Source of the DNA: an uncultured Chloroflexia bacterium | Lineage (GTDB): Bacteria > Chloroflexota > Limnocylindria > Limnocylindrales > CSP1-4 | DNA: 64,000 nucleotides | Direction of reading: 5' to 3' | Assembly: GCA_963741915.1 (NCBI GenBank) | Contig: CAVUJW010000009.1 | Span: forward strand, 61,960 to 125,959 | Shown: positions 537 through 52,099 of the stretch, piece by piece | Position numbering within the stretch: the stretch's first letter is position 1 | Layout: every line of letters begins with the position of its first letter | The notes under the pieces: model-generated | The model's input: the letters and a program-made list of their open reading frames with translations, nothing else | What the model was told of the DNA's origin: nothing | The model's database searches: none | Position numbers and translations under genes: made by a program

Positions 537-621
537 ATGACGTCATATCTACCACGGTGGACAGACCGCTGTCACGTCCATCACCATCCGCGGCACCCCT
601 CGCGATCCCAGGAGAGCCGCC

Positions 622-16946: not shown

Positions 16947-17702
16947 TCAGCCGCGCAGCAGGCGCATGCCGCACTTGGGACAGTAGAACGCTCGCTCGTG
17001 GCCCGAGGCGAAGCCGCAGTGGGCGCAGACGAGGCCGCCGCGACCGGCGGCGGGCACCGGTCGCTCCACGGCGGTCAGGCCGAGCGCGTACTGGTTGGCG
17101 AGGATGTTGGTCAGCAGCCCGCCCAGGATCCGCTGCGCCGATCCGGTCCGTGTCGCCGCGGACGCCGCGGCCGCCCCAGCCGACGACGCCGCGCACGATC
17201 ATGTCGCCGGTGGCCTCGTCCCAGTGCGATGCCACGCCGCCGACGATCGCGTTGTACTCGGGGTAGCCCGAGGTGTCGGTCTCGCCGTCGAGCAGCGCGC
17301 AGGCGAAGGTGTCGAACGCGAGGTCGATCGCGTCGATCGACTCGAGGACGACCAGGGCATGGCGGGTGACCGGGCTGAGCTCGTGGTGGGCGTTGAGCCA
17401 CTGCATCGCCTCGGACGGCCGGGCGATCTGGGGCATCGCCTGGCTGAACTCGAGTCGGGAGCGGCTCGACGACCTCGACGTCGCTGCTGGGCGATGCCCC
17501 CGAGCATCGCGGGCAGCTCGGCCAGCGCCCGCGGCCCTGCCTGCAGCCGGACGCCCTCGGTGCTCTTGCCGGCGTAGTACAGCTTGAGCTGGTAGTCCTG
17601 GGCGACGACCTCCTCCGGCAGCCCGATGACCGTGGGCTGTCGCGTGGCCTGCACGGGCTTGTCGTTGTCGCCACCACGGCGCTTCAGGAACTCGAGCGGC
17701 AC
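16947..17702 (-). CDS. Hypothetical protein with C-terminal zinc ribbon (possibly DUF3027-like), 2 frameshifts
   Basis: C-terminus GLVCAHCGFASGHERAFYCPKCGMRLLRG*. The body is split over ORFs 17199-17702 and 16939-17436. Confidence 0.4.
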
Positions 17703-29340: not shown

Positions 29341-29385
29341 GATGCGGGAACGCGCGTGGTGCCGGGCTGGCCCCGGACCGCCCGC

Positions 29386-30699
<1,314 letters not shown>

Positions 30700-30711
30700 G
30701 GGTCCCCTGCG

Positions 30712-31396
30712 CTATCGGTCGGCGGCAGGCCCGGGCTCGCCCGGGTCCAGCGCCTTCCCCCCTGCTGCCTTGCCACCCGACAGCTCCGCATCGTGCGCCT
30801 GCGCGATGAGCGAGTCGCCGGTCAGCGTGTACACCGCGTCGATGATGCCATAGTCCTTCGCCTGCTCGGGAGCCATGAAATAGTCCCGATCGGTGTCCTT
30901 GACCACCTTGTCCAGCGGCTGGCCCGTGTGGCGGGCGAGGATCTCGTGGTTGACCTGGACCAGGTACTCCCACTCGCTGCATCTGGATCACGGCGTCGGG
31001 CGCGTTGCCCCGGAAGCCGCCCGAGCCCTGGTGGATCATGACCCGGCTGTTGGGCAGCGCGTAGCGCTTGCCCTTCGCGCCGGCGGCCAGCAGCACCGCC
31101 GCCATCGACGCCGCCATGCCGATGCAGATCGTGCTCACCGGCGCCCGCAGGTACTGCATCGTGTCGTAGATCGCGAGGCCGCTGGTCACCACCCCGCCGG
31201 GCGAGTTGATGTACAGGCTGATGTCCTTCTCGGGATCCTCGGACTCGAGGAACAGCAGCTGCGCGATGACGAGGTTGGCGAGGTGGTCGTCGATCGCGTC
31301 GCCGAGGAAGATGATCCGCTCGCGGAGCAGGCGCGAGTAGATGTCGTACGCGCGCTCCCCGCGGCTGGTGGACTCGATGACCATCGGGACGAGCAT
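30712..31396 (-). CDS. clpP: ATP-dependent Clp protease proteolytic subunit, frameshift near 30980
   Basis: [56 protein letters not shown] plus C-terminal [23 protein letters not shown], in two frames. Confidence 0.85.
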
Positions 31397-31417
31397 CGTG
31401 GGTCTCTCCTGGGCTGG

Positions 31418-32867
31418 TTCAGGCGTCGCCGGCATCAGCCCGCGGCGGCGGGTTCGGGCACCCGGGATCGCCCCGGGATCGGTGGCGTCGATCGAGGCCG
31501 CCGCCTCGGCTTCGGGCGCGTCGACGGCGGACGGCGCGTCGTCCTCGAGATGCGGCAGCGCCGGATGCTCGGGATGGGCGGCCAGCCAGCGGTCCACCAG
31601 CGTCTCGACGACCCGCGTCCGGCGCAGCGTGCTGCGGATGAAGCTGCGTCCGCGCTCGGACTCGAAGTAGCGGACGGTCTTCGGGTCCTCGTAGCGAGCC
31701 CGCGCGCAGCTCGACCTGCGCCTCGACCTCCGCGTCGGGCACCGTCGAGGCCCTCGGCCTCGGCGATCTTCGACAGGACGAGGAGCACCTTGGTCCGCTG
31801 CTCGGCGCGCGGCCGGAACTCGGCGTGCAGGTCCGGCCTCGGTCTGCTCGGTCGCCTTGAGGTAGGCCTCCTCGCGCGATGCCCTGGCGGGCGAGGGTCG
31901 TCCGGAACTCGTCGTGCATCACCTCGACCTCCTGGTCGACCAGGATGTCCGGGAGGTCGATGGTGGCGTTGGCGACGGCGTAGTCGATGATCTGGTCGCT
32001 GAACTCGTGGCGCGCCCGATCGAGCGCGTTGCGCTCGAGCCGCTGGGCGACGTCCGCGCGCAGCTCGGCGAGGTCCGCGTAGTCACCCATGCGAGCGGGC
32101 GAACTCGTCGTCCGCCTCGGGCAGGACCTTCTCGCGCAGCTCCTTGAGCGTCGACCTGGAAGTGGGCCGGCTGGCCGGCCAGCGACGGCTCCGGGTAGTC
32201 GTCCGGGAACGTGATGTCGAAGTCCGTCGTACTCGCCGGGCCGGAGCCCCACGAGGTTGGCCTCGAAGCCCGGGATCAGCCGATCCTCGCCCAGGATCAG
32301 CGGCATCCGCTCGGCCTCGCCGCCGTCGAACGGCTGGCCGTCCCTGGTGCCCGGCGAACCCGATCACCGCCCAGTCGCCGTTCTGGGCGCCACGGTCCTC
32401 GACGGCCGCCAGGGTGGCGTTCTGGTCGCGCAGCTCGTCGATGACCTTGTCGACCTTCGCGTCGTCGACCGTCTCGATCTCGGGCGCGAAGTTGAACTCG
32501 GTGTAGTCGCCCAGCTGTGACCTCGGGCCGGACCTGGACGGTCGCCTTGAAGCGGAGCGGCTTGCCCTCCTCGGCCTCCACGACCTCGACGTCGGCGTTC
32601 GTCAGGGGCAGGATCTCCTGCTCGACCAGCGCCTCGCGGTAGGCGTCCTGGACCAGGTGCTCGACCGCCTCGTCGAGCACCGCGCCGCGGGCCGAGGACG
32701 CGCTCGAGGATCGGGCGCGGGGCCTTGCCCGGGCGGAACCCGGCAACCCGCGTGCGGCGAGACAGGCGGCTCACGGCGTCGCGGACGGCGCGGTCGAGGC
32801 GCTCGGGCGGCACCTCGACCTCGAGCAGGATCGAGCTCTTGGGGGCGGGGGTGGCGGTCACGTTCAT
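31418..32867 (-). CDS. tig: Trigger factor, multiple frameshifts
   Basis: N-terminus [28 protein letters not shown]...[13 protein letters not shown] and PPIase/C-terminal segments ([28 protein letters not shown]) in different frames. Conserved tig-clpP-clpX order. Confidence 0.8.
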
Positions 32868-32985
32868 CGCCGGGCGAGTATAGGGTGGGTCGGCCGGGGG
32901 GCGCGAAGGTGCACGGCGGCCGGATCGTGGAAGGCGGGAGGCAGGCTCGTCCCGCTCGGCGGTCCCGGCCGGTAGACTCGCCGCC

Positions 32986-33026
32986 ACGGGCGAGTGGCGG
33001 AATGGCAGACGCGCCGGCCTTAGGAG
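32986..33026 (+). repeat. 41-bp direct repeat identical to the 5' half of tRNA-Leu (acceptor 5' arm, D-arm, anticodon stem 5' side plus loop); putative att site / left island boundary
   Basis: 32986-33026 is 41/41 identical to 49162-49202. The flanks diverge immediately on both sides. Confidence 0.8.
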
Positions 33027-33745
33027 CGATTCCTGCCCTGCTCAGTGCGCCGCGATCACGGAGTGATGCTAACGAGTCCGAGTTATGTGCGCGCCTCACA
33101 CGCACGGATTTCGGCTGCTTCCTTCGGGTGATGCGAGGACAAGGGCGACGCTCGGCGCAACTCCCCATCGCTGCGGCGAGGCGTCCTGTGCACGCCGCGC
33201 GACGATGCCGATGCACCCGACTCTCGAAATACCAGGAACTGCACGTAGGACAGACGGTACGGCTTGACCGGTCTGTAGGGTGAGGCGGCCCAGCAACTAT
33301 TGGCTGGAGGCGAGGGCGTCTCTGGCCGGCTGCCGCTATGAGGACAGCAGAGTTGGTCGGAGTCGCAAGGCTCGACCGCGAGACCCGCCGCCTCACCGGC
33401 CTCAACGGTCACCACTACGTGTCCCGTCCTTCCTGAATGATCTGCGAGGACAAGCCGTGAGTTCTTCGTGCGGACTGGGTGCGACCCGCACGGAGGCAAA
33501 TCGGCTGCCGCATTGCCATGCGCGAGGTCCGTACCTCGCTGAGCCGCTCGAGATCATCTCGGTCGGGGGCTCCAGATTTACACGAAATTCGAGGGCCGAG
33601 ACTGTTCGGATTTCTTGAGGCGGCTGACGACTCGCCGGGAAAGTTATGATTGACCGCCGCCCAAGGTTGAACTAGAGTGAGCCCACGAGCCGGAACGGCG
33701 CTCGATCGACGCCCGGGAGGCTCGATCTGCGGAAGGGGGTCACGC

Positions 33746-34123
33746 ATGCGACGATCGCTCATCTCCCTGTTCTCTGGCCGTCGCCCTGCTAACACTCGCG
33801 GGGAGTCCCGCCTTGGCCGTGAGCGCCAACATCAACCCGGCCACCCAGAGCCACGCCCACAATGTCTCCTCGAGCTGGACGGGGTCGTGGACCGGCCGAA
33901 TTAAAGCTTCGACACCATCTTCTGGTACGGCGACGGGACCGGGCTCGAGGTCGTTACGAACAACCTGTCGCGAAACTACTCGCACGGCTATTCACCGTGC
34001 CCGGGCGACCCGACAACGTATTACCAGCTCCTCCAGGTCTGGGACAACGTCGGGCACGGCACGGGCAAGCTGTACGCGTCGAGCACGAGCAGCGCGCACG
34101 AGAACGCCGGCACCCCCTGCTGA
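33746..34123 (+). CDS. Small secreted protein (hypothetical), 1-2 frameshifts
   Basis: Strong SD GGAAGGGGG 6 nt upstream of ATG. MRRSLISLF then a signal-like LAVALLTLAGSPALAVSA. The mature part FDTIFWYGDGTGLEVVTNNLSRNYSHGYSPCPGDPTTYYQLLQVWDNVGHGTGKLYASSTSSAHENAGTPC* has protein-like composition. GC is about 60%. Confidence 0.4.
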
Positions 34124-34150
34124 GGACGGTCCGAGCGTATCCTGTCGAAC

Positions 34151-36888
34151 ATGGCGGAGGGTCTTCCCGGGCCGCTGACACGGCTCCGGCGAGATCCTCT
34201 CGCCGTCGTGGCCGTCGTGCTCGTCGCGCTGCTTGCCTCAACGACGGCCGGCATCCATGAGGCGGCAACGATCCGGGTGGCCGCCGTCGTTGATGCCCAC
34301 TGGCGCGGCGCCTACGACATCCTCGTAAGGCCAGCGGGAGCGCGTCTCGACCTCGAGGCCACGAATGGCCTCGTCGAGCCGAACTTCGTTGGATTCACGG
34401 GTTCGGGCGGGATCGGCTTGGACGAGCTCTCGGAGATCCGGAGCGTGGCCGGCGTCGAGCTGGCTGCGCCGATCGGTTTTGTGGGCTATGTGCGCAGCCT
34501 GGCACCGGCCGTCGTTATCGAGCTCGACCAACTGCCGGCGCGACCGACTCTCTATCGAATCGGGCTCGTGTCGACCACCACGGATGGCCTCAACAAGCAG
34601 CTCGTCCAACGCGAATCCGGCGAGATCCTGCTCGGGCCGCCGGCGGCTGGCGATCGTCCTGCTGCCAACTGGGCGTCGAATTTCGGCGATGTCGACGCGA
34701 ACCAGGATCCCGATGGCCGATGGATCGTCGACATCATCACCAAGCGAGCGCTCCTGGGCTCGCTGGTGCCCGTGCTCGCCGTGGACCCCGCCGCCGAGGA
34801 CGAGCTCCTGGCCGGGAATGCACCGTTCCTCGAGCCGCTGCGCCGCGCCGGATCGATCGATCGCACTGCAGGATCCTTCGACGCTGACCTGATCGATCCC
34901 GCCTTCCGGCAGGCCACCGGCCAGCTCCGGTCGATCCAGTCGCCCGGCAACGCGTTCCCCTCGGACCGCATGCTGCCAGTGATTCCGCTTGTCGTGAGCA
35001 GCCGCCAGGTGGCAGCCCTCACAGTCGACCTCACGGTGGATCAGCTGGGCGCGCCCATGCCAGGCTACCCGCCGGGCGGCCTCGCCGCGGCTGAGGCGGA
35101 GGCAGGGTCCGGAACGACTCGGATCGGGACAGCGGCGGGTGATGCGGGCAGCAGCCTCGCTCCGCTGCGGGCACCGTCCCTGTGTCGTCCCGTGGCCGAA
35201 TTCGCACGCGACCTGCGGCGTGGCGAGCCTGTTCTCGACCTCCAGCCTCGACGGACGCTTGATGGAGCGACCCACCTACGTTGTGGCGGCGTCGTCCGGC
35301 CCGGACGGCGGAGCGCCGGCGTTCCGGATCGAGCAGGTCGGGACGGTGGATCCCGACGACGATCCCACCACGCCCGACTTCCGGATGGGCGATCTCGCGT
35401 CGACCGGGGCGTTCCCCGCCTACCGCAAACTGAGGCAGGTTCCGCTCGCAGTTTCCAAGATCCCGTTCTCGCCCCACGCCAACATCCGGGAGCCATTCAT
35501 CCTCGCACCGGTCGGCACCTTCGACGCGACCGCGGTCAAGGTCCCCGACGATCCAATCGACTACGTCCCGCTCGGGGCCTACGACCCCTCCGACACAACC
35601 TACATCGCCGATCCGAGCGGAGCGATTGGCACCCCTACTTCGATGCGTTACCCGCTGCTGCCCGACGGTCTCGTGACAACGCCCCCCCTTGCAATCACCG
35701 ACATTAGGGGCGCGCAGGTCCTCCGCGGCGACTCACCCATCGACGCTGTCCGCGTCCGGGTCGCCGGCATCAACGACTTTGGACCGGCGTCGCAGGCCAG
35801 AATTGAAGCCGTCGCAGCGGCGCTCAAGCGGCTGGGATTTCGACGTCGACATCGTCGCCGGCTCGTCACCCAGGCAGTCGATGTGTACGTCCCGGCCTAT
35901 CACGTTAATCGCGACCCGGCGGGCGATCTCGGCTGGGTCCGGCAGCACTGGACGACCATCGGCGCGGCCGCGCGTGTCACGCACGGATTCGACGCCTCGG
36001 ACCTCGCCTTGCTCATGCTCAGCGCCGCTGCTGCCGCAATCTGGGCATTCGCTCTCGCCGGCCTACGGGCAGAACGCCGGGTCCGCGACGCCGCGATCTT
36101 GACCGCGATCGGCTGGAGTCGGGCAAAGATCGTCCGCTGGCTCACAGGTGAGCCGGTCCTCGGGGCGATCGCCATTGCTGCGCTCGGCATCGTCGGTTTC
36201 GTGGCTGGCGGCGGCAGCCCCGAGGCGGTGGCGGTGGCGGTGGCAATGGCGGTCCTGTGGTTCCTCGCCGGCATTCTTGCGGCCCTGGATGCGGTCCGGC
36301 GGGCGCGGCCGAGCAGCCTTGGGGCGGTTGGAGGCCGGAGCGGGGTCGCACTCCGGATCGGTGTCTCGGACACGCCGACCTACGCGATTTGCGCGGCGAT
36401 CGCGCGGTGGCCGTGGGTGGCGGCCATAGCACTGGGTCTGGGCGCGGCGGGTGCGGCCGTCGCCCTCGGGCTCGCGCTCGTGGCCGGCCTTAGCACACGC
36501 ATCGGCCCGACCCTCCTCGCGTCCGCGGCCAGCGCCGCCGCGGCACTCTACCAGCCAGTCATGCTCACCGCGATCGGGGCGGGCTCCGTGTTCTTCGTCG
36601 TCGTCGCCTTCCGCATGGACCGCCGGCGTCGGGCGCCCGAAGCGCTGATCCTGGTCGTCAGCGGCTGGTCGAGCCGACAGGTTCGGCGCCTGCTCTGGGC
36701 GGGGCTCCTCCTGCCGGCGATCGGCGGTGCCGCCATCGGGGTGGTTGCCGTCGTCGCCCTGGCCGGACCGTTCGAGATCGCAAACCCGGCGCTGCCGGCG
36801 ATCGGTGCCGCCGCGCTGGCCGGGGGCGCGGCGCTCTGGGGCGATCGTCGTCGTCCGTCGTATCGGTGCAAGTCCTGGGGACATCAGA
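34151..36888 (+). CDS. Large ABC transporter permease with roughly 700-aa extracytoplasmic domain and two FtsX-like modules, frameshifts near 35250 and 36870
   Basis: N-terminal TM, long ectodomain, then ILTAIGWSRAKIVRWLTGEPVLGAIAIAALGIVGFVAGG (FtsX-like) and a second module LILVVSGWSSRQVRRLLWAGLLLP. The stop overlaps the ATPase start (TGATG). Confidence 0.6.
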
Positions 36889-37589
36889 TGATGTTGCGAG
36901 AGGCGGATCCCGCGGCGGATCCTAGGCTCGAGGTGACCGGCGTCGAATTGAGCTACCGGCTCCCGGGCGGCGAGCTGCTCCACGTGCTGCGCGGGGTCGA
37001 TCTCGCGGTCGGGTACGGCGAACTGCTCTGTGTCGCCGGCCGGTCCGGATCAGGCAAGACCTCCCTGTTGTATGTCGCGAGCGGGTTGTTGGCCCCGGAT
37101 CACGGCGTCGTGCGATGGCTGGGGGAGGACATCACGCGGCTGACTGCCGCGGAGGTCACCCAACGGCGGCGACACACCATCGGCTTCGTGTTCCAGACCG
37201 GCGGCCTGGTCGACCTGTTGACCGCAGCCGAGAATGTCGCGCTGCCCGGGCTCGCGGACGGCCGCGATCATCGCAATTCGCACGATCGTGGCGATGTTCG
37301 CGCGCGAGTCGCCAGCCTTCTCGAGGAGTTCGACCTATCTCAGCGCGCGCGCCACTTTCCGGCGCAGCTCTCGGGAGGCGAACGGCAGCGCATAGCAGTC
37401 GCGCGGGCACTCTTCGCGGATCCGCCGGTGCTGATCATCGACGAACCGACCGCCAGCCTCGATGCTGCGTCGGCCGAACACATGGTCGAGTTGCTCCGAG
37501 GGATCCGCGACACGGGCCGGGCGGTGCTCGTCGCCTCGCATGACGAGCATGTCATTCGCGGGGCGGATCGCCTCGTGCACCTAGACTGA
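36888..37589 (+). CDS. ABC transporter ATP-binding protein (MacB/LolD-type)
   Basis: Walker A GRSGSGKTSLL, Q-loop, signature LSGGERQRIAVARAL, Walker B VLIIDEPTASLD and the H-motif VLVASHD. Confidence 0.85.
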   Translation: MMLREADPAADPRLEVTGVELSYRLPGGELLHVLRGVDLAVGYGELLCVAGRSGSGKTSLLYVASGLLAPDHGVVRWLGEDITRLTAAEVTQRRRHTIGFVFQTGGLVDLLTAAENVALPGLADGRDHRNSHDRGDVRARVASLLEEFDLSQRARHFPAQLSGGERQRIAVARALFADPPVLIIDEPTASLDAASAEHMVELLRGIRDTGRAVLVASHDEHVIRGADRLVHLD

Positions 37590-37899
37590 TGTTGAACGAG
37601 CTGCGTCTATGCTCGACTGGCGCCTAGCAGTCTCTTGGACGTGGTGCGCGGCCGGATACCGGGCGACCGGAGGAGCAGGGCCCGGCCGTGGAGCCCATTC
37701 CTATGCTTGAACGAATGCCGGACCCGGAGAGCCACGCCGTTGTGGCTCGGCAGCGCCGTCTGGATGGAGCAAGTACTCCTGCACTTCGACGCTATTGGTG
37801 CTCCGCGCCGTCTGACTGCGACGCGCCCGCCTCATCGACCGACTCCGGGTCGGTTCTATGCCAGCGAGCCCTGGCTGCGCGGATCGCATGTTGCTGAGC

Positions 37900-38968
37900 G
37901 CAGGTTGCGGGCGCGCTTCAGGATCTCGTTCTCTGGAAGGCCAGAGTGGAATCGGCGTGCCTCGGCGACGAAGCGATCGTCCGCGGCCGCGCGTGCAGCA
38001 GCCGTGGCGGCGCTGCGATCCCGGACACGCGCCCAGCGCTCGTGGGCAGCCAGGCGGGCGAGGGAAGCGCGATCCCCCGTACCAAGTGGGCGCTCGGCCC
38101 GGTCAGGCGGCTTTGGGCCCGTGGGAGCCCCGGCGCGACTGGCTCAACTTCAGCGCCTCGTCGGCCTCTTCGGCGGCGCCATCGCCGAGAAAATTGCCAG
38201 CCAGGCGTCGGTGCCGACCGGCGTCGGGCACCGCCGCGGCATTGGATCCGACAGGATGTCGCCGAGCGCTGCCCGGCGACCACTGGGGAACATTGGGACA
38301 GTGGCGCACGCTAGGCCGGCCGTTTGAAGCTCGCCGAGACGAGTGCCCGGTGCTCGTCCGTCGAGGCCCTGGTAGCCGCCACCTCGCTTGGCCACGCGGG
38401 CGACGAAGTCGACACGCGCTCTGCTCGGCGTGATGAAGACGACGTGCCAGCCCGAGCGGCCGGCGAGAGCATCGGAATAACGCGCGAGTTTGTCGCGGAT
38501 GTCCTGGCCGTGCTCGGTCGCCTCGTCGATCTCGAGGCAGAGGACGGCCGAGCCCGACTCCGCCCGGAGGGCGACGACGCTATCGGGGTAGACGCCGGGC
38601 AAGAGGTCGGACGCCATATACTCGGAATACCAGACTTGGACAAGCGGGCGACCGTCGCCGGTCGGGGCGCGTACGAGTGCGCAGCCGGTCTCGACCGACG
38701 TTGAGCGAGTGACGGAGCTGGGTCCCGGCGCGGAAGCGCGTGAGCGAGTCGTAGTGGAGGCGGCGGCGGCCCTTGGCCGCGACGCGGAAGGCGAGGGTGA
38801 ACCTCCGCGGGTCGTCGGCGGTAGGACGGCGCGATCGAGATAGCCAAGCTCGTACAGGGCGGAGAAACGTTCCTGGGCGGTCTGGCGGCGTCGGTAGACG
38901 AGGGTCGTCAGCTGGCTGGTGGTTGCGAAGAGGCGGCCGGTCGCGACCGTTCCACCCGTGAGATGCAC
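37900..38968 (-). pseudogene. Replication-relaxation family (Replic_Relax-like) protein, degraded copy 1
   Basis: TSQLTTLVYRRRQTAQERFSALYELGYLDRAVLPP...LLPGVYPDSVVAL...AVLCLEIDEATE...KLARY with several frame changes. Confidence 0.5.
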
Positions 38969-38974
38969 CGCAAG

Positions 38975-39566
38975 GCTGCCCGGCTCCCATCCGGAAAGAC
39001 ATTCGACGCCTGGGAACCGAAAGCCTCGGCGATCCCAGGTGAGGCTCAGTGGGCGCTGCGGACCCTCGACTGGATCGGGCGGGCTGAGAACCTCGTCCTG
39101 GTCGGTCCGTCAGGGACCGGGAAGTCCCATTTCGCCGAGGCGATCGCCCACGCGGCCATTGATCGGGATCTACGCGTGAGCTGGTTCAGTCTCGAGACGC
39201 TGACCGCGACGATCGCCGGGTCCAAGGTCGACGCCTCGATGCACACGGTCGTCGATCGGATCGTCCGATCTGAATTCGATCGTGGTCGACGACATCGGCC
39301 TGCTGCCGGCCGGAGCCGACGAGGCCGAGGCCCTCTATCGCCTCGTCGACGCGGCCTATGAGCGCCGCTCGCTGATCATCACCTCGAACCTGCACCCTGC
39401 CCGCTTCGACTCGATCTTCCCGAAGGGCCTCGCGACGGCGGCCGTCGACCGTCTGCTCCACCACGCCCACGTCATCGTCACCGAGGGTCAATCGCACCGT
39501 CTGACCGAGGCGCTCGAGGGTCGTGGCGTGGAGCCGCTCGATGCATCGTCGGACGAAGGCACTTGA
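38975..39566 (+). pseudogene. istB: IS21-family IstB helper ATPase, N-terminally truncated, internal frameshift
   Basis: Walker A LVLVGPSGTGKSHFAEAIAHAA, then VDDIGLLP...ERRSLIITSNLHPARFDSIFPKGLATAAVDRLLHHAHVIVTEGQSHRL. No istA present. Confidence 0.75.
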
Positions 39567-39704
39567 GAGGTCTCACTGTCCTGCGTGGTCTCCGACGAAG
39601 CCTCTATCGGGATCATCATCGGACCCGGGCTGGGGATGACGACCAAAATGACCTGACGACCCCTTCTCGCATACCCTGCCGATCAACCGGAGAGGTGGCA
39701 ATTC

Positions 39705-40220
39705 GTGTCCGAGACCATGATCGACGAGGCGCGCCGGCGCAACGTTGAGCTCGACGCCGTCAATGGCCGGAATCTGGAAGCGATCGACGCGTTCGGCTGG
39801 GCCCTGGTGATGGTCGGACCAACGCGGAACGAGCGGTTCGTTCCCTTCGCCTACACGATTGGTCTGTCTCGGCTGGACTCGCCGGAGGTGATCATCATCG
39901 GGATCGACCCTTCACCGGCCGGTCGCATTCTGAACGACATTGGCACCATCGCGCTCAACGGCAAGAGGATCGACGTGGGCCCTCTCCCCGGGATTCTCGG
40001 TGGTGACTACATCCTCGATCTGCGGGAGATGGGCGCCCTTCATTACGACGAGTATCTCGGCCGCCTGCTCTGGTTCCACAAGCAGTTCGGCACTGGCCGG
40101 CTGCGTGTCCTCCAAGCGGTCTGGCCGGACAAATTGGGACGCTACCCTAACGACCCGGGTCTAACAGACGAGGAGCGCGCCCGCTTTGTCGAAGGTGAGC
40201 CGCTGCTGGGCCGCGTCTAA
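39705..40220 (+). CDS. DUF4262 domain protein
   Basis: Intact 171-aa ORF GWALVMVGPTRNERFVPFAYTIGLSRLDSPEVIIIGIDPSPAGRILNDIG...RVLQAVWPDKLGRYPNDPG matches the DUF4262 pattern. GC is about 60%. Confidence 0.6.
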   Translation: MSETMIDEARRRNVELDAVNGRNLEAIDAFGWALVMVGPTRNERFVPFAYTIGLSRLDSPEVIIIGIDPSPAGRILNDIGTIALNGKRIDVGPLPGILGGDYILDLREMGALHYDEYLGRLLWFHKQFGTGRLRVLQAVWPDKLGRYPNDPGLTDEERARFVEGEPLLGRV

Positions 40221-40474
40221 GACTGGGCCAGATACGTGGTGCTTCGAGCGGCGAGTCACCGTCGGTTGAATGACCTAGTCGCGAGCGAGGCATCAGCCAC
40301 GGGTCGCTGATCGCGCCTGTCGCAGGCCGCCGGACTTCCGGGTGGGCAGGTTCAGTGGCCGCCGGTGGGCAGATCCGATGGCCACGGCCGGGCAGGATCC
40401 GTGTCCGCCCTCAGGCAGTTCGACTTGGCCATTGACACTCCGATGTCAAGGGACATAAGGGACGGGAGGGTGGC

Positions 40475-40540
40475 GGCCACGAGATCTGGACAGGCGCGGA
40501 CACGGAACCTGGACAGTCGTGGCCACGAGATCTGGACAGT
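40475..40540. repeat. Two direct copies of 20-bp palindromic-core motif GGCCACGAGATCTGGACAG (BglII AGATCT core)
   Basis: Copies at 40475-40494 and 40521-40540. Related inverted copies at 42646-42664 and 42669-42687. Confidence 0.8.
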
Positions 40541-40938
40541 CAGAGGCCCCCGTACGAATCCTCCTCGTCCAGGTCGGCCAATTGGGCCGGGTGTAATGTG
40601 GTCGCGCCGACCCTTCGTCGGTGGAGGCGTGACACATGTTCTGGGACGATCTCGTGCGGCGGTGGCGACGTGAGGCAGGTGGGCTGAACCCACGGCTCCT
40701 CCAATCAGCGGCTGGGCATGTGGCTGTGCTGCCTGGGCCCAGGCCCCGCCGACGTTCCTGGGTCCGCTGGCTTCTCCTGATCGCACTCGGCGTTGTGCTG
40801 ATTGTGCTGCTCGGTCAGGTCGGTCACGGGCAAGCGGTCGCCGTAGTCGCTGCCACCTGACCTCGTCTGGTCGCGTTCGTCAGTCCGGCTGAGATCGCCT
40901 TGGGTTTCGTATACAGGGCCTCAGGCAGTAGCCCCTTG

Positions 40939-41214
40939 TCACTCAGGCTCGGCCGCCTCCAATGGCATCACGCCACGACCGTCGAGTGCCTCGGTGAGGC
41001 GATGCGACGTGCCCTCGGTGACGATGACGTGGGCGTGGTGGAGGAGCCGATCGACGGCGGCGGTCGCAAGGCCCTTGGGGAAGATGGTGTCGAAGCGGGC
41101 CGGGTGGAGGTTGCTCGTGAGGATGAGCGAGCGCCGCTCGTAGGCCGCGTCGACCAGGCGATAGAGGGCCTCGGCCTCGTCGGCGCCGACGGGCAGCAGT
41201 AGGGTCGGCGGCAA
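40939..41214 (-). pseudogene. istB: IS21-family IstB C-terminal fragment (second copy, inverted; about 85% nt identity to 39300-39540)
   Basis: LLLPVGADEAEALYRLVDAAYERRSLILTSNLHPARFDTIFPKGLATAAVDRLLHHAHVIVTEGTSHRLTEALDGRG. Confidence 0.75.
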
Positions 41215-41458
41215 GGCGCCGTGCGGCCTCTCAGCCGTCGGTCTCCTCGCCGCCGCCCTCCGAACCGGACGTGCGCGTTCCCGCGCATCCGGCTCTCCAC
41301 GAACACCCGGAGCAGGTATCGATCACGCGAACGCCTCAGCCAGCCGACCGAGGAACGCCGGATCGTCGTGCGACGTGCGCCCAAAGCGCGCGCCACTCGG
41401 ATCAAGCGTCCCCTCGTTCCATGGGGTCGAGATCCGCCCGCCCCGGAAGCGGTAGGCG

Positions 41459-41961
41459 ATGGTCGAGGCGATGCTTCTGGGCGGCCTGCGCCGCTCTGAG
41501 GTCCTCGGCCTCCGCCTTGCCGACCTCAACCCGGGTGAACGGCGGGTGTTCATCGCGGCGGGCAAGGGCGGTCATCAACGGGTCGTCCCGATCTCGGCCC
41601 GATTCTTCGAGAACTCGGCCGCGTATCTCGCGACCGAGCGTCCCGAGACCCGATCGGAGGCGCTCTTCGTGAGCCTGAAGGGGCACCGCCGGGGACAGCC
41701 CCTCTCGTCGGCCGGGCTCGACGAGATCCTCCGCGGTGCGCGCCGTCGAGCGAGTCTCGGACCGATCACCTGCCACCAGCTCCGCCATACCTGCCTGACC
41801 CGCCTGCGGGAGGCCGGTGCATGGCCCTGGAGGCCATCCAGGCCCGAGCCGGCCACCGCTCGATCGAGTCGACCCGCGTCTATCTGCACTTGACGAGCGA
41901 CTGGCTCGCCGACGAGTACGCTCGGGCGGTCGTGGCCATCGAGGCCGAGGTCGGCCGGTGA
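41459..41961 (+). pseudogene. Tyrosine recombinase (phage integrase family) C-terminal catalytic fragment
   Basis: LLGGLRRSEVLGLRLADL (box I Arg), CHQLRHTCLTRLREAG (box II His-x-x-Arg) and AGHRSIESTRVYLH (catalytic Tyr), with one frameshift. N-terminal core-binding domain is absent. Confidence 0.7.
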
Positions 41962-42253
41962 CCGCCCTCCGGCTGTCGCCGGCGCACGAGCGGCTTGTCG
42001 AGCGGTATGCCGAGGAGCTCTCCCGCGCCGGTACGACGATCGACCACTCCTGGCTGTGGGCGGCCGCGCCTTCTGTGCGCGTTTTCGGTGATGGCGAGAC
42101 TTGGTCCGCCCTCGGCGTCGCCGATCAGATCGCCCTCAGACATTGAAGATTTAAGCGCTTCGTCGCGTGGCTGATCGCGACCCGTCGCCTGCGGCCGAGC
42201 GCCGAGTACCTCGTGACTCGCAGGATCCACCTGGGCGACATCGTCGCCCGTCA

Positions 42254-42547
42254 TCATCCGGACTTCTTCGCCGAGGTCCAGCGCCACCGCAGCCGAGATC
42301 GGATTTCGGCCCGGCGTCGATCGGGCGCCAGTGGCGCGCGCTTACGCAGGTCTGCGCCCTCGCCCGGATCGAGGACCTGGTCGCGTCGCGCGGATCGACC
42401 GGTCGGCAGTCGGCCGGTCTCGCGCAGGCGGACATAGCGGGCGACGGTCATCGGCGAGCAACCGGCCAGGCGAGCCGCATCACGCAGGCTGCCCGTCAGG
42501 TCGAACGCCTCGAGGATCTCAATGATGTCTCCGGTATACCTTGCCAT
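42254..42547 (-). CDS. HTH domain protein (transposase-type N-terminal HTH, possible IstA remnant)
   Basis: MARYTGDIIEILEAFDLTGSLRDAARLAGCSPMTVARYVRLRETGRLP resembles IS21/IS481 transposase N-terminal HTH. Confidence 0.4.
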   Translation of the reverse strand: MARYTGDIIEILEAFDLTGSLRDAARLAGCSPMTVARYVRLRETGRLPTGRSARRDQVLDPGEGADLRKRAPLAPDRRRAEIRSRLRWRWTSAKKSG

Positions 42548-42645
42548 ATTGCCGCCCTCGGTTCCTGGGGTTCCACAACACCCTCAGTGAACCGGGGAGG
42601 GACGACTCAGCTCACGGCGCCCTCAGGCGACCGTCCGGCGAGCCC

Positions 42646-42687
42646 GTCCAGATCTGGTGGCCGCCACCGTTCAGATCTCGTGGCCGT
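42646..42687. repeat. Two inverted copies of the GGCCAC(G/C)AGATCTG(G/A)AC motif
   Basis: gtccagatctggtggccgc (42646-42664) and gttcagatctcgtggccgt (42669-42687). The reverse complement matches the 40475 and 40521 copies. A shared flanking block gcggacacgRaacctgRac is also conserved. Confidence 0.8.
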
Positions 42688-43086
42688 CAGCGTTCAGGTT
42701 CGTGTCCGCCTCCGTCCACATTCCCATGTCCGCTGGCACGAGACCACTGGCACGTCGCCGCGAGTGCGACAATCGCCCGCCCGGATCCGCAGGGGAGATC
42801 GGTCGCGGAGACGTACAACGGTTGTTCGATACCGGACCGCGTCAGCTCGGATTGGCAGCCGGCGTGGTGGGACCCCCGAGTAATTCCCCATCGAGCCTAC
42901 GCCCGTCCCGGCCGGCTGCCGGCGTTGGTCAAGCATTTGCTCTTGCCCGTGTCGAGTTGCTATTGACTTCCAACGAGTCGGGGGGGCACAGTGACCAGGG
43001 TTGTCCTAGAAGGTGCTGGAGGGGGATGTGCCAAGTCTTGAAGTTAGACGACCGGGACGCTGGTCCAAGTTGAGGCTCAGGCCGCG

Positions 43087-43662
43087 TTGGGCAATCAAGC
43101 TCGGTCTAGCACCAATCCTGATCCTCGTCTTCTTCCAGGCACCGCTTTCGGATATCACTGGGCAACCGACGGCTGGTCAGATCGACATACGGGATATCCA
43201 GCGGTCCCCAATGGCCTGAGCGCAATCAACAGCACATTTGGAACGCGCTGCACCAGTAACTTCATCTTCAACAAGTTCACGTGGCTGGCCGAGAACGCCA
43301 GCTGGAACGTGAACTTCCACAAGAAGCTCGGGGAGCGCCGACCCCAGGTTGGGTACGTGGGAAACGGCGGCGGATCGACGCAACCTCTTCTATGACGTCC
43401 GCGGACACATCGCGAACGGCCATATGACCGTCCTGGGCGGTATCGGGGGCATAACTGCCGGCTGCAGTCCGGCTCCACGACGCTCTGGAGCACCCACGCC
43501 TGGGGTATTGCCATCGACATCAACTGGAACCACGAGCACGTTGGTCACTGCCACAACCACACCATCCCAGCAAATGTCTCGAGCACGTTCCAGAATCACG
43601 GATGGGAATGGGGATTGGCGTTCTGCGACGCCGAGCACTTCCAATATGCGACGGGCTACTGA
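43087..43662 (+). CDS. M15-family zinc peptidase (VanY/endolysin-like D,D- or L,D-peptidase), about 3 frameshifts; start uncertain
   Basis: Exact SxHxxGxAxD motif (STHAWGIAID), followed by NHGWEWGLAF and the third Zn ligand region DAEHFQY, then stop. GC about 55%. Pieces are in ORFs 43087-43395, 43349-43735 and a third frame. Confidence 0.5.
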
Positions 43663-43847
43663 TATGACTACGGATTCGATCCGCCAAGCGCGGAATCATC
43701 CCTCGTTGCCGTCGCAGCCATGCTCGGGACCTTAGTTGGAGTCGCCACGGCCGCGCCGAAACCGCTCGCCGTAGCCGAAGCGCCTTTCGACGTGGCGCAG
43801 ATCACCGGAACGGGCGAGCGTCTGATCCTGGTCATCAGCGGCAGATT

Positions 43848-44303
43848 TTGACCAGAGAGGACGCCGAAAAGGGGGTGGCCGCCATTAGCTTCGGTGACAT
43901 GGCCGGCTTCTATGTCGACTTGACGGACAACTACAACGTCATCGGTGTCTATGGTCAAAAAGATCCGGACATTGTGCCGATCACGTGCGAAGACATTCCC
44001 CAGTCGGTCGGAGAATGCGAACCTGGCAGCATCATCGAGGCCCATCAGGCCGTTACGCTTCAATACCGCGAGCTGACCCCGGGTAAGGGCCTTGCACTCG
44101 ATCCGGACGACCCGGCGTGCGATTTGATCGGGCATCCGCCGTGTGTATCGAAGCGCCTGAATGCGCTTCTCACCGGATCCGATGAACAGCTCGAGAAAGG
44201 GAACTTCCTCGCTCTGTCGGCGTTCCGCACGCTGACTGGTGCGGAGGAGTTTGCCGAGCTGCTGGTGATCGCGGAGCAATTGTCAGTGTCATACGAGCAG
44301 TAA
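43848..44303 (+). CDS. Hypothetical protein (low GC, island cargo); possible upstream signal-peptide exon at 43729 if a frameshift is assumed
   Basis: Intact 151-aa ORF with balanced composition (MTREDAEKGVAAISFGDMAGFYVDLTDNYNVIGVYGQKDPDIVPITCEDIPQSVGECEP...). The upstream ORF MLGTLVGVATAAPKPLAVAEAPF is signal-like. Confidence 0.45.
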   Translation: MTREDAEKGVAAISFGDMAGFYVDLTDNYNVIGVYGQKDPDIVPITCEDIPQSVGECEPGSIIEAHQAVTLQYRELTPGKGLALDPDDPACDLIGHPPCVSKRLNALLTGSDEQLEKGNFLALSAFRTLTGAEEFAELLVIAEQLSVSYEQ

Positions 44304-45349
44304 AGGCCGGGGACACGTACGTCGGCCTCGGTGGGAAGCCCCGTCCAGGCACGGCGAAATCTAGGCCAGTGCTCAGTCCCTCAGTGATCCCGACAAGTAT
44401 CGAGCAGTAGGCTTCGAGCCCTCGCTTGGTTTGCGGTTCTAAGCGATCAGGCGCTCGCTCTGAGCGATCCCCGAGCCTTCGGGTGGTCAGGGCTATGCCA
44501 CCGCCGCCGAGCCCGAGCGCCTCGATTGCCTGGCGGAGACTGGCCACATGCCCCGAAGCAGTAAACGGATCAGGTCGTCCCGGACGACCTTCAGCTGATG
44601 AGACCGCTCAATTGTCGCGTCTGGTAGTCTGGCCCAGTGGCGTACGGGTCCAGTTCGCGGCGGTACCCGGATCGCGTCGAGTTGACGATCCTCTCGGGAG
44701 TCACAGGCCAGGCTGCCCGGCGCGGATACCGGTCGCCGCGTCGAACGTCCGCGGTAATTCGAGCGACAATGACCTCGCCCGGTTCCGGGACCCTGATTAC
44801 TCGGTGGCACGAAGCAGACGAACGTGCGCTCCGTGCGGTCGGTAGGCGGCGTTCTCGCGAGCCGGGTTAACGGAAACCGAGCTCGACGCCGTCTATTTGC
44901 CGAGGGTTAAGGTAAGGTCGCGCTGCGTTGCCGCCGCTCCAGGGCGTGGCCCGAGTCGACGATGGTAGACAGCAGTCCTTAGCAGGCGCCGCCAGACGAT
45001 TGGCCAACATGGGAATACGCTTTGACCGCTGCAGATCGAGGCCGACCGTTTCCTGCGCGAGACGATCGACCGGGTCCGCGACGCCGGCGCGAGCGGCAAG
45101 CCTCAGTCGCGCTTAGGTGCGCGGCACAACTTGCCAGGGGGCCGACACTATGTCCATTAAGCGGCGAGACAATCGATCGTCGGGTCGTGCCGTCGCCCGG
45201 CAGCATCGGCCTTCGACGGGCGGCTCCGAGTCGGGGGCTTCTGCCACCGCGCCCCCGGGCAGGTGCGGACCAGCATGCGCCGAGCACCGGGTTGCGGGCG
45301 CCGCTTCACGATCTCCTCGTCCGCGGGGCCGGGATGGAATTGGGGGCGA

Positions 45350-46420
45350 GCTTTCCACGATGAAGACGATCGTCGGCCGCCGTCCGGCCAGCGGTTGCCG
45401 CGCTGTCGATCTACCGAACACGCGCCCAGCGCTCATGGGCGAGCCAGGCCGGCGAGTCGAGGCACGATCTGTTACACGGAGAGTGCGGCCGGGCCTGTCG
45501 GGCCGAGGTGCCGGCTGATCGCTGCGCCGATGCACGGTCACCGCAGCGCCTCCTCCGTCTCCTCGGCACCGCCGGTACCGAGGACCTGGAGCCAGGCATC
45601 GGTGCCGAACCGGCGTCGCGCAGCGGCGCGGCGCGGGGTGCGGTGGCGAGTTCGCCGAGCGCGGAGTCGCCGGCCACCAATGAACAGCGGAGCCAAGATG
45701 TCATCCCGAGGCCGGAGCAGAAGAGCTTCGCCGAGCGCTAGCGCCCATGCGCGACCGGATCACGCCCGGATCGCCACCACCGCGCCGAGCAACGCGGGCG
45801 AGGAAATCGAAGCCGTCTGTCGGCTCGAGGACAACTGAAGAGCGACGTTCCGGCCGGAGCGGCCACGGAGGGCATCGCCGTAGCGGGCGAGCTCTGTCGG
45901 CAGGATTCTGCGGCCGTGCTCGGTCCCCTGGGTCGATCTCGAGGCAGAGGACTGCCGAGACGGTCGGTGCCTGGAGGGCGACGACGCTGTTGGGGTAGAC
46001 GCCGGGCAGGAGCTGCGCGGCGAGGTACATCGGGGTACGCGAGCTGGACCGGTGGCGGTCGGGCGGTGCGCGTGGCCCGGACGAGGGTGCAGAAGCGGTC
46101 TCGCGTCGTTGAGCGAGTGGCGAGAAGCTGGGTGCCGGCCCCGGAAGACGGGTTGAGCGAGAGGATGAGCCCAGACAGCATCGGGCCTCGGCCGACACGG
46201 CCGGAAGGCGTCTGGTACTCCGCCGCGGCTTGACGGTGGCAGGACGGCGCGATAGAGATTAGCCGACGATCTAGAGGGCGGAGAGGAGGTCTGCCTGCGG
46301 CGGTCTGGCGGCGCCGGTAGGCGAGAGTAGTGAGCTGAGGCCGTTGATGGCGACATCGCAGCGGTAGAGGAGTAGAAGGAGCAGGCCCGATCACAGTAGC
46401 GAAGGAGACCGGAGTCCATC
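45350..46420 (-). pseudogene. Replication-relaxation family protein, degraded copy 2 (paralog of 37900-38968)
   Basis: SSQLTTLAYRRRQTA...LYRAVLPPSSRGG...MYLAAQLLPGVYPNSVVALQAPTVSAVLCLEIDPGD. About 75-80% nt similarity to copy 1, including the downstream region (45418 vs 38028). Confidence 0.5.
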
Positions 46421-47999
46421 GCCGTCCGACGATCTGGTCACGGCGGCCAATGCGAGACGCCCGATCACGGAGTAGGGTCCCGCGGTCAAGGTCTCCCGCA
46501 TCCGCATAGCGATTCAGGGGCAGCCGATCGGGGCGCCGAAGACCCCGTCCCGCGACCCGCCAAACAACCAGTCCCACGTCATGCGGCAGACATGCCCGTC
46601 GGCGCGAGTCATCGATCACCTGACCCAGGCTGTTCGTGTTATCCAATTCGGGGCGACCTCGACCAAGGGCCTCAAGTCCTTCGTTTTCGAAGGCGGCCCG
46701 ACTCTTCAAGCTGCGAGTGGCGGGCCGGGACCGTGTCCGCGGGCGGGCGATCGAGCGGCGCGGCCGTCTGGCGCAGGGACGAGGCGTCGATCGACCGACC
46801 GGCCACGGCCGACCGGTCCGACGGCGCGGACCTTGACGATCAGCTACCCGGTTCGTCGTCAGCGACCAGTGGAGCGGTGAAGCTCCTCCTGGCTCGACGC
46901 GACGGGTGGCTGCAGTGGCAGCTCGGGTCCAGCCGAGAGCGGCGAGCGGACGATCGAGCGAGAGAGGCCGAGCCGCCTGCTCCGACCGTAGTCGCGAGCG
47001 ACGCGGCGGTGGGAGAGGGGGTTTAAGTCTATTGTTCAATCTATTGGGCCGACGGTCGACGTCCCAATTGACGCCCAGGACGACGTCTGCGACGCTACCG
47101 ATCGTGCTCGAGACAAAGCCAACCATACAACCTCAGCCGACGGACGGTCGGGACAGTCCAGACGCGCCGCCGAGCGCAGGATTGGCACCGAGCCCAGGAC
47201 GCCCTCGTCGAGACTACGCCATCGACAAGAGCTCGCCCGCCATGCCGGGAGGCCGACCCGAGGCGGATGCCTGGGCGGAGGCAGGCTGCCCGAACTGCGA
47301 GTTCACAGGCCAAGGCCGAGGATCTCGAGGCCCGTCTACTCGGACCGCGGACGCCGAGAGCGTGGCCCCCGGTGTAGCGGGTTCAACCGCTCGGCTGCGC
47401 ATGCGTCAGTCGTCGACCTCGACCCGACCGAGGGCCACGAGCAGGCGGGCTCCTCGAGCAGGCCCTCGTCAGTCAGCTACGAGGCGTTTCCGCCGCTCGG
47501 GCCTCCTTGACGGTCTGCCCCGTCAGCCGCGGCGCGCGAGCGGCGGCGGTATCTGCAGGGTGAGGATCGCGGTCCCGGCAGGAGAGGCTGGCCAGACGAA
47601 GGACGGGCCCCATGCCTATGTGCCCAGGTCTGGACAGTACTCGGTCCGCCAGGATCCGGGCATGCCGGCGTCCTGCCCGACGGTCGGATCACCTACCTCG
47701 CGGAGCCGCGGATCCGGTCAGCGGTCCACGCGGCATTACGACATCGCTTCGGGAACTCGACATCCGCGCCCTCTCGGACGGCGCCGCCGGTCGGGTAAGG
47801 CGGTTGGAGGCGGTTCGTGACCAGACGTGTCGGCCCGGCTGTCTGCAGAGCCACGCGATGAGCGGGCTGCCCACCCTCCTCGGGCCGGTGCATCCGCGAA
47901 TCACGTAGTGAGTAAGGTCTCAGGGCGATTCCCGCCTGAGCACGAATTTGTCTCGCGCCTGGTCAATCACCCATCTGTCATCTATGGCGATTGATGAGA

Positions 48000-49050
48000 G
48001 CACGTTGCGGACCGCGTTTGCGGGTCGCAGACACTGACGTGACCGCGGAGCGCCTTGCCATCGCGTCCCTCCCACTCTGTCCCTTCTGGGTCCTCTGGTC
48101 AGCGCTGGCGCGCGAGGCGGGTCGAGTCGGGCTGCGGTAGGCCGCACGCGCCCGCTCGGCCGCCGCCGATGCGCTCCATAGCGCGAGAGCATCGAGCGAT
48201 CCGCCCAGCCGCCCAGGACCATCACGTCGCCCTCGCTGTGGCCGCTTGCCAGCATGCTCGATCGCCCAGGTGTGGCGAAGCTGATGGGGGTGGACGCGGA
48301 GCCCGCCTGCGCGGCTCGACGGCCGATGGTGTGGTAGATCTCGTTGCCGGTCAGCGGCTGGCCCGTTCTCGCCCGCCACAGCGGCTCAGTCGGTCGCCGT
48401 GGGGCGCTCGGGGATGGCGCAGGTAGCGGAGCAGCGCCTTGGCGGTTGAGGCGCCGTAGACGACCGCCCTGCCACGTCGGCTCTTCGACGTCGAGGCCTC
48501 CACGAAGGCGACCTGTTGCGCGAGGTTCAGGTCCACGACCCGAGCCCGGCCAGCTCACCGCGGCGGATGCCCGTGTCGAGCATCAGGGACAGCATGGCCA
48601 GGTCGCGGCGGGCGATGAAGTCGGTCCCGGCGCAGGCGGCCAGCAGGCTCGCTGACCTCTTCGTCACGGAGCACCGCCGGGGGATTGACCGGCACCGATG
48701 GGGTCCGCATCTTCTCCATCGGCTTGCGCGCGATCTCGTCCTCGTCGACGAGCCAGCGCGAAGAACGGGCGCAGGGCGCGGAACAGGATGGAGACCGTGG
48801 CCGGCGCGTTGCCGCGCGCCTGGAGCTCCACGAGGAAGGCTTCCAGGTGCTCGCGGCGGATGGCGCCCAGCTCGCGCGGCATGCCCCTCTCGACGAGGAA
48901 GGGGTCGAGGCGATCGAGGGCCCGCAGGTAGGTGGCGATGGTCCGCGGCGCGCGGCCCACGCTGCGCAGGTGAAGGGTCCAGTAGTCGCGCGTGCTCGCG
49001 ATGGTCGGGCCGGACGCTAGACTAGGGGTCTCGGTGGTGGTCCTTGCCAT
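48000..49050 (-). pseudogene. int: Tyrosine recombinase/integrase (XerC/XerD-like SAM core-binding plus catalytic domain), multiple frameshifts, adjacent to tRNA-Leu
   Basis: N-domain YWTLHLRSVGRAPRTIATYLRALDRLDPFLVERGMP...REHLEAFLVEL. Catalytic HPHQLRHTWAIEHAG and LGGWADRSMLSRYGAH in different frames. Confidence 0.7.
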
Positions 49051-49162
49051 GGTGCGGGGCCTCTGTGTGACGAAAGGAACGAACACCCAGAGTTATACGC
49101 GCCTCATGCACTGTGCGCAAGCCCTCCACCGAGTTATACGCGACTCCTAAGCACAAAACCGC

Positions 49163-49250
49163 GGGCGAGTGGCGGAATGGCAGACGCGCCGGCCTTAGGA
49201 GCCGGTGTTCCGTGAGGAACGTGTCGGTTCGACCCCGACCTCGCCTACCA
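49163..49250 (+). tRNA. tRNA-Leu (anticodon TAG), type II with long variable arm, CCA encoded
   Basis: Manual cloverleaf: acceptor GGGCGAG/CTCGCCT (G1-U72), D-arm GCG-GAATGGCAGA-CGC, anticodon stem CCGGC/GCCGG with loop CTTAGGA, variable arm GTTCC-GTGA-GGAAC, T-arm GTCGG-TTCGACC-CCGAC, discriminator A, CCA. Confidence 0.85.
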
Positions 49251-49270
49251 CGAACGCGTCGCGCGACGCG

Positions 49271-50640: not shown

Positions 50641-50835
50641 CGGCGGCCGCGGGGCGCCATCGGACGGCGGCCCGGGATCCTGGCGCACGGGTTCGGATGC
50701 AGTCCGATCGGGGTCCAGCGGTCGTCCTCCGGGAAACGGGTGGGCAGCTCGTCGGGGGGTGGGCGAATCATACCAGCGCCGACCGAGGGCCCGGCCGGCG
50801 GCCGACCGTGGGCCGGCCGGAGTACGCTCCCGATC

Positions 50836-52098: not shown

Positions 52099-52099
52099 C

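Follow-up and report, generated by a model that had tools for sequence, protein, structure and literature searches.

A site-specific element upstream of tRNA-Leu(TAG) in a Chloroflexota genome and its clade of Xer-like integrases, with attachment sites carrying the 5' half of the target tRNA

The window analysed here, by which we mean the whole stretch of 64,000 nucleotides, very probably (we would put this reading at about 90%) contains a site-specific element of ~16.2 kb inserted in tRNA-Leu(TAG) by a member of a clade of Xer-like integrases, whose attP carries the 5' half of the target tRNA and whose crossover falls most likely in the anticodon loop. The element occupies positions 33028-49162 (~16.2 kb from repeat start to repeat start), stands out by its composition, with 59-70% GC inside the island vs 72-76% in the flanks, and is absent from the empty sites L096-L099. 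It carries the integrase, a small protein, a replication initiator, and cargo. In the mechanism that we propose, integration would leave the host 5' half of the tRNA, together with its native promoter, at the far end of the island (32988-33027), the integrated element would end up upstream of the tRNA gene, and the functional tRNA would consist of an element 5' half joined to a host 3' half and be transcribed from element DNA.

ARAGORN finds a single tRNA in the 64-kb window, a tRNA-Leu(TAG) at 49163-49250 on the plus strand, which matches the Rfam tRNA model with 53.6 bits. A repeat search of the window pairs 32984-33027 with 49159-49202, a direct repeat of 44 nt with one mismatch, within which 32987-33027 and 49162-49202 are identical over 41 nt, that is, from position -1 to position 40 of the tRNA. 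The copy spans the 5' acceptor strand, the D-arm, and the anticodon stem and loop (positions 32-38), and stops 2 nt past the loop, in agreement with an earlier note on this DNA, which had described the displaced copy as the 5' half of the tRNA; the extent given there was right, and its placement at 32986-33026 was one base off. Beyond the identity block, the left copy continues with GATTCC and the tRNA gene with CGGTGT. The 24-nt core of the repeat occurs at only two sites in the window, with 0 matches expected from 100 shuffles, and a search of the window with this core for a third, internal att copy, as a sign of tandem elements, returned none. The left copy (32988-33027), which begins at tRNA position 1, receives no tRNA call by ARAGORN or Rfam. 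Like the intact gene it is on the plus strand, at a distance of 16,175 bp on the upstream side. An intact tDNA and a fragment in the correct configuration, at a distance within the 2-200 kb range, with an integrase between them and an empty attB in related genomes, are what Islander defines as a tRNA island, and all of these are seen here.

The fragment is preceded by cggTAGACTc, with a TAGACT -10-like box at 32974-32979 inside the native tRNA-Leu upstream region (32869-32987, plus strand). Of 80 related loci, 53 have this box ahead of tRNA-Leu, as do the empty sites L095-L098, and its presence before 32988-33027 therefore identifies the fragment, which the repeat and the empty-site alignment define as positions 1-40 of tRNA-Leu(TAG) and as the attL core, as the original 5' half of the host gene. 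Judging from the sequence, the region 32869-32987 would now drive only the displaced fragment. At the other end of the island, the intact gene at 49163-49250 (attR), recognised by ARAGORN and Rfam and identical in 88 of 88 positions to the tRNA of L096-L099, is chimeric: up to the crossover, its repeat copy (49162-49202) comes from the element, whereas the host contributes the 3' half of the tRNA. The suggestion of the earlier note that the element supplies the 5' half of a chimeric tRNA is supported; the displaced piece keeps the native promoter.

Empty sites of the window's own lineage were obtained by a metagenome scan with the window-specific 3' half of the tRNA, which led to five contigs (L095-L099). 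Each has one intact tRNA-Leu(TAG), with all 88 nt the same as in the window, including G1.U72, and neither an integrase gene nor a separate 5' fragment. On either side of the island, L099 and the window are colinear, with L099 positions 1-452 corresponding to window 32446-32900 and L099 positions 587-3831 to window 49163-52245, and the left flank of L096-L098 is 86% identical to the window (L096 vs window 29361-32892). Because these contigs match on both sides, the window amounts to an empty site with a precise 16.2-kb insertion within the tRNA, and the alignment of L096-L099 on either side of this insertion bears out the claim that the element lies upstream of the tRNA. In this lineage (window and L095-L099), tRNA-Leu(TAG) has a G1.U72 wobble pair (49163 and 49245), and its variable arm and T-arm differ from those of more than 75 Limnocylindria genomes, with the same 5' half. 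We rejected the possibility that this pair and the unusual 3' half are errors or the mark of a foreign chimera, as the tRNA is identical in L095-L099.

A wider view came from a genome scan with Tig, which yielded 80 species-level Limnocylindria loci (L007-L086). Of these, 64 are empty, with a native promoter box (TAGACT in 53, TAGGAT-like in 11) and a single tRNA-Leu(TAG), and with no integrase gene and no extra copy of the 5' half; among all 80, no locus devoid of the integrase has an extra 5'-half copy. A fragment in island-free genomes, which the earlier note had named as evidence for a relic, was thus absent both here and in L095-L099. Four of the 80 loci have an intact integrase gene, and three or four are remnants that preserve only the P' arm and the first 20-25 integrase codons upstream of tRNA-Leu (L015 at ~780-936, L048 at ~9660-9890, L075 at ~870-1056, and possibly L062), where the element-derived upstream region appears to have been retained after island loss.

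The usual order in Limnocylindria (e.g., L011 7858-7941) has tRNA-Leu(TAG) in the same orientation as tig, which follows 15-25 nt downstream, with its ribosome-binding site directly after the tRNA. The window lineage (L096-L099) has tig divergent from tRNA-Leu, the opposite of more than 75 Limnocylindria genomes. An inversion of the whole promoter-fragment-island-integrase-tRNA block after integration was considered and rejected, as the two genes are already divergent in the empty L096-L099.

The integrase gene (47950-49052, minus strand) lies at the right end of the island, ~110 nt from the 5' end of tRNA-Leu and divergent from it, and was recognised by a Pfam SAM-like domain, a three-frame reconstruction, and its homologs. 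In the reconstruction, the HxxR and Y motifs read HPHQLRHT and RYGAS, and an alignment of nine sequences of the clade shows R161, K188, H254, R257, W280, and Y289 to be invariant, which is the R..K..HxxR..W..Y catalytic pattern that defines the tyrosine recombinase superfamily; the homologs carry PF00589. The reconstructed protein has 692 homologs at an E-value <=1e-10, the closest 60 of which are intact proteins of 312-316 aa with 70-84% identity, coming from Chloroflexota/Limnocylindria MAGs and from soil or sediment metagenomes. Its two domains, SAM-like core-binding and catalytic, resemble those of the XerC/XerD chromosome-dimer resolvases, which are also its best matches in NCBIfam and the PDB (XerD 1a0p being the closest structure). 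However, it scores far below the NCBIfam equivalog cut-offs (142.5 bits vs 335 for XerC, and 141.5 vs 330 for XerD), is borne by an element, is sporadic among species, and adjoins a tRNA att site: it is a mobile-element integrase and not a Xer orthologue.

The window is rich in single-base insertions, with 13 relative to L096 over clpX-clpP-tig (29361-32892, 86% identity). The gene for trigger factor, tig (31400-32868, minus strand), which forms the left chromosomal flank and was identified by Pfam Trigger_N and Trigger_C on separate ORFs and by three-frame reading, is readable only via ~10 frame changes, and the integrase gene needs ~7. The view of the latter as a pseudogene with seven frameshifts was dropped, given the ~10 changes in tig and the 13 one-base insertions vs L096. 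In such an insertion-rich assembly, frame changes are uninformative on pseudogenisation or activity of the integrase, and ORF-based inferences in the window are unreliable.

The att sites have a constant anatomy. The P arm (33028-33100, plus strand) consists of the conserved post-core sequence GCG ATTCCTGCCCTGC followed by an arm-type repeat, GAGTTATGTGCGC, at 33080-33092, and can be aligned to the sequence that adjoins the fragment inside the islands of L002/L007 and L087. Element DNA on this side of the core starts with GCC, or GCG in the case of the window; a stretch containing CCTGC comes next, and the P-side arm repeat stands 50-56 nt from the core. The P' arm (49090-49143, plus strand), between the start of the integrase gene and the tRNA, has arm-type repeats GAGTTATACGCGC at 49090 and GAGTTATACGCGA at 49131, and all filled loci show the same order upstream of the intact tRNA: GTTATACGCG, a spacer of ~30 nt, GAGTWATACGCG, a spacer of ~20 nt, and the tRNA. 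In the window, matches to the pattern RTTATRYGS are confined to 33082, 49092, and 49133, and L002 has them at the three equivalent places and nowhere else; the arrangement, with a single repeat in the P arm and two in the P' arm, is also seen in L087, L093, and L094. The P' arm is the presumed site of an element-supplied tRNA promoter. A scan of the junction showed no sigma-70 consensus promoter upstream of the chimeric tRNA, and consensus scans for promoters and terminators found nothing at either island junction.

Heterobivalent (lambda-type) integrases likewise act on an attP whose core is flanked by arm-type repeats. Unlike these, the integrase described here has no separate N-terminal arm-binding domain: only ~22-35 residues stand ahead of the SAM-like domain, and Pfam and NCBIfam searches found no further domain. 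An adjacent protein of 83-91 aa (phrog_2842) is a candidate reader of the arm repeats.

A survey of homologous integrases and their att sites, as the earlier note had proposed, shows the 5' geometry to be common to the relatives. In those with 40-84% identity, the integrase gene is divergent from the 5' end of a tRNA gene of one of six species: Leu, Lys, Met, His, Arg, and Val. At tRNA-Leu this is the case in L001, L002, L004/L005, L027/L088, L041, L067, L087, and L090, and in the closest relatives' contexts (L001, L002, L004/L005, L087, L088, and L090) the integrase gene lies ~110 nt from tRNA-Leu(TAG). The same half-tRNA repeat at tRNA-Leu, also anticipated, is present in L002 and L087. In L002, 7.3 kb is bounded by a direct repeat of 48 nt without mismatch (9849-9896 and 17131-17178), which takes in tRNA positions 41 to 1 and 7 nt of the leader; in L087, the 5' half reappears at 17296-17336, with 7.45 kb enclosed. 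Among relatives with an integrase of 50-54% identity, L093 has an 8.7-kb island with a 42-nt repeat at tRNA-Lys(CTT), L094 an 8.7-kb island with a perfect 44-nt repeat at tRNA-Met(CAT), and L092 the same arrangement at tRNA-His. L002, L087, L093, and L094 are the four complete islands with 5'-half repeats beyond the window. Relatives from IMG/VR with 40-49% identity have the integrase gene at the 5' end of tRNA-Arg(CCG) (L100) and tRNA-Val(GAC) (L106). At the far island end of L004 (~17440-17560), a P-arm-like sequence and an arm repeat are kept, without the displaced 5' fragment. For L027, L041, L067, L088, L090, L100, and L106, the DNA analysed covers the island from its integrase side, short of the far end.

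A free attP can be seen directly in L101, a 9.8-kb viral contig in which the integrase gene and arm repeats are followed by GGCGGAGTAGCTCAGTGGTAGAGCAGGGGACTCATAAGCC, the 5' half of tRNA-Met, and then by non-tRNA sequence with an arm repeat. ARAGORN makes no tRNA call on this contig, whose capsid gene shows a circular permutation compared with the integrated L094. The elements of L093 (10001-18579), L094 (10001-18526), and L101, of 8.7-9.8 kb, contain an HK97-type capsid gene and a primase/helicase gene, and look like capsid-encoding phage satellites; in L088, a small terminase and a prohead protease are encoded. In a neighbour-joining tree, the 5'-type integrases group together. In one member of the sister group (L103, 18-1058; 40% identity), it is the 3' end of tRNA-Arg(ACG) that adjoins the integrase gene, which is the classical polarity, with the same integrase-proximal repeat between the two, and 3'-end tRNA sequence is also seen in L109 (33% identity). 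The polarity thus seems to flip at greater evolutionary depth, L103 and L109 being read at the integrase-proximal end only.

Taken across the clade, attP would comprise 1-7 nt of leader and positions 1 to ~40 of the target tRNA, bordered by one RTTATRYGS arm repeat on the P side and by a pair of them on the P' side near the integrase gene. The identity ends at tRNA position 40 in the window, at 41 in L002 and L087, at 38 (41 with one mismatch) in L093, and at 40 in L094 and L101, so that in six independent elements and three tRNA species (Leu, Lys, and Met) the shared block stops within 0-3 nt of the end of the anticodon loop. To rebuild the gene, a match to the tRNA is required of an element just in the part 5' of the crossover, besides the overlap, and this constant 3' boundary leads us to infer an exchange in the 7-nt anticodon loop, for which the strands of the anticodon stem would most likely serve as core sites; the earlier proposal of a crossover in or near the loop is supported by the same boundary. 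As the identity covers the entire 5' half, and all the att pairs found are identical 5' of the boundary, with no attL/attR polymorphism, the sequence fixes only the 3' limit of the crossover, at or before position 38-41. The comparison of filled and empty sites, which the earlier note had proposed for mapping the crossover, establishes a precise insertion within the tRNA. By the same geometry, the element would also supply the leader and the promoter of the tRNA.

Several other explanations deserve consideration. Half-tRNA relics do occur in genomes, and the fragment of the window retains a native-looking promoter, as might be expected of the remains of an old tRNA duplication or decay with no relation to the island. 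Yet a single tRNA-Leu with no fragment is what the empty sites show, both the five of this lineage and the 64 in related species; the DNA missing from the empty sites is delimited exactly by the fragment and the tRNA of the window; and equivalent half-tRNA repeats bound integrase-bearing islands at Leu, Lys, and Met tRNAs elsewhere, which makes the relic explanation close to negligible. We give hardly more credence to a classical integration restoring the 3' half, with the 5' geometry created afterwards by inversion or misassembly. The error-rich window, its tRNA orientation relative to tig, and the tRNA 3' end next to the integrase gene in L103 would speak for it, but the divergent order of tig and tRNA is native to the empty L096-L099, in independent assemblies, and the 5' geometry is found again in numerous assemblies of independent origin, from short reads and from long reads alike, as well as in the free attP.

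The 5' polarity could also be real and the strand exchange lie elsewhere in the shared 41 nt, such as the D-arm or the acceptor stem; with identity from -1 to 40 and no polymorphism between attL and attR, the sequence alone permits any position. A more 5' exchange would give no reason for attP to match onward to position 40, yet six elements match perfectly to 38-41 and then diverge; in addition, the anticodon stem supplies the inverted-repeat core typical of tyrosine recombinase sites, and anticodon-centred sites are the commonest class (PMC4383910). We consider such a displaced exchange unlikely. It is, by contrast, very improbable that the att sites belong to the second recombinase of the island (41450-41960) or to another function, with the integrase at 48-49 kb as a passenger. 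A second Phage_integrase domain does lie inside the island, but only the clade of the 48-49 kb integrase co-occurs with 5'-half att sites in other genomes, its integrase gene always lies ~110 nt from the tRNA 5' end with conserved arm repeats between, and the relatives' islands have no homolog of the second recombinase. Integration of the element through its own Xer-like integrase, with a 5'-half attP, is the reading that we retain.

Within the island lie a cargo gene for a fused FtsX-like permease and ABC ATPase (35139-37589, plus strand; Pfam ABC_tran 6.9e-29, FtsX 4e-6) and a module of a small protein and a Replic_Relax-type replication initiator (37901-38968, minus strand; tblastn to the 87-aa protein of L004, Pfam PF13814 with 5e-8, and PHROG 'replication initiation by nicking'), the small protein being a homolog of the integrase-adjacent gene in relatives. 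A second, paralogous small-protein and Rep module (45367-46337, minus strand) was recognised by the repeat families D1, D2, D7, and D8 at a spacing of ~7.4 kb, and the two (37974-38914 and 45367-46337) have 72-87% nucleotide identity; with no internal att copy, this duplication is not a simple tandem array. Searched against the window by tblastn, the proteins encoded in the islands and flanks of the relatives gave almost no matches apart from the 87-aa protein. The second, unrelated tyrosine-recombinase catalytic domain (41450-41960, plus strand; Pfam Phage_integrase 1.4e-21, with the frames read) gives no match to a query from the integrase clade, shows no N-terminal domain upstream, and is probably part of a nested or cargo element rather than the att-defining integrase. 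A group II intron domain V/VI match (41199-41297, minus strand) reaches 53.1 bits in Rfam (gathering score 40), and a 245-nt inverted repeat (39300-39544 and 40955-41199, 84% complementary) flanks a DUF4262 gene (39705-40220) and abuts this match; together they may represent a mobile element nested in the island, or part of an intron. At 40465-40539 there are three 23-nt tandem repeats (GGACAG...CTGGACAG); these and their inverted copies, 2.1 kb off at 42639-42701, border the region of the second recombinase. With a second recombinase, the remains of a group II intron, and a duplicated Rep module, the island is composite, and may no longer be mobile as a unit.

Regarding known systems, an anticodon-loop ('A') sublocation class of tRNA-targeting integrases was reportedly described by Williams in 2002, with the sublocation said to be constant within an integrase clade. 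The window island is like this class in having one block boundary at the anticodon stem-loop, with the symmetric stem as the core, but it is the mirror image of the usual members, as its block extends from the loop over the 5' part of the gene and not over the 3' part. With such a block, the element must also supply the leader and the promoter.

The Islander collection (Hudson, Lau and Williams 2015, PMC4383910) counts 3760 islands, ~96%, with a 3' fragment, against 159 in which the fragment is a 5' one, and the 'configuration filter' of Islander explicitly accepts a 5' fragment upstream of the tDNA. The anticodon-centred site is the commonest sublocation there, in 2083 of 3919 islands (PMC4383910). 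When the earlier note called both the sublocation and the orientation uncommon, it was right about the 5' polarity, which is rare (159 of 3919, ~4%), but not about the anticodon sublocation. The polarity is therefore rare but already catalogued, and the window island, a tyrosine integrase island between an intact tRNA and a co-oriented upstream 5' fragment like the 5'-fragment islands of Islander (PMC4383910), represents a recorded configuration and no new kind of system. Integration at the 5' end of a host gene, with the 5' portion restored, is also described for the dusA-specific integrases (Farrugia et al. 2015, PMC4482086), for which the target is protein-coding and the integrase family different.

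Compared with the counts in the Islander paper (PMC4383910), the present analysis concerns one coherent integrase clade in Limnocylindria-like Chloroflexota, to which comparative evidence ties the 5' polarity across at least six tRNA species. It adds a directly observed attP, arm repeats without an arm-binding domain, and remnants keeping the element upstream region. Through its empty sites, filled sites, and free attP, the clade offers a multiply replicated example of the rare 5'-restoring islands, in which polarity, like sublocation, tracks the integrase clade, with a possible flip in the sister lineage of L103. In practice, island finders and annotators expecting only 3' fragments would misplace such an island to the wrong side of the tRNA, and 5'-type integrases could be useful for insertion upstream of tRNA genes.

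For the biology of these bacteria, an insertion on the 5' side would make the host tRNA dependent on element DNA for its promoter and leader. A broader idea, which we put forward only tentatively and consider rather doubtful as yet, is that the 5' polarity is a fixed property of the Xer-like clade and that the element thereby takes over the transcription of the host tRNA. If this were true, the arm repeats, in the absence of an arm-binding domain in the integrase, might serve as promoter or operator, and in most Limnocylindria the element upstream region would also drive the tRNA-tig(-clpP) unit; the remnants in L015, L048, and L075 would then suggest a takeover that is permanent after the rest of the island has been deleted. 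The remnants suggest, in any case, that the dependence of the tRNA on element DNA can outlive the element itself.
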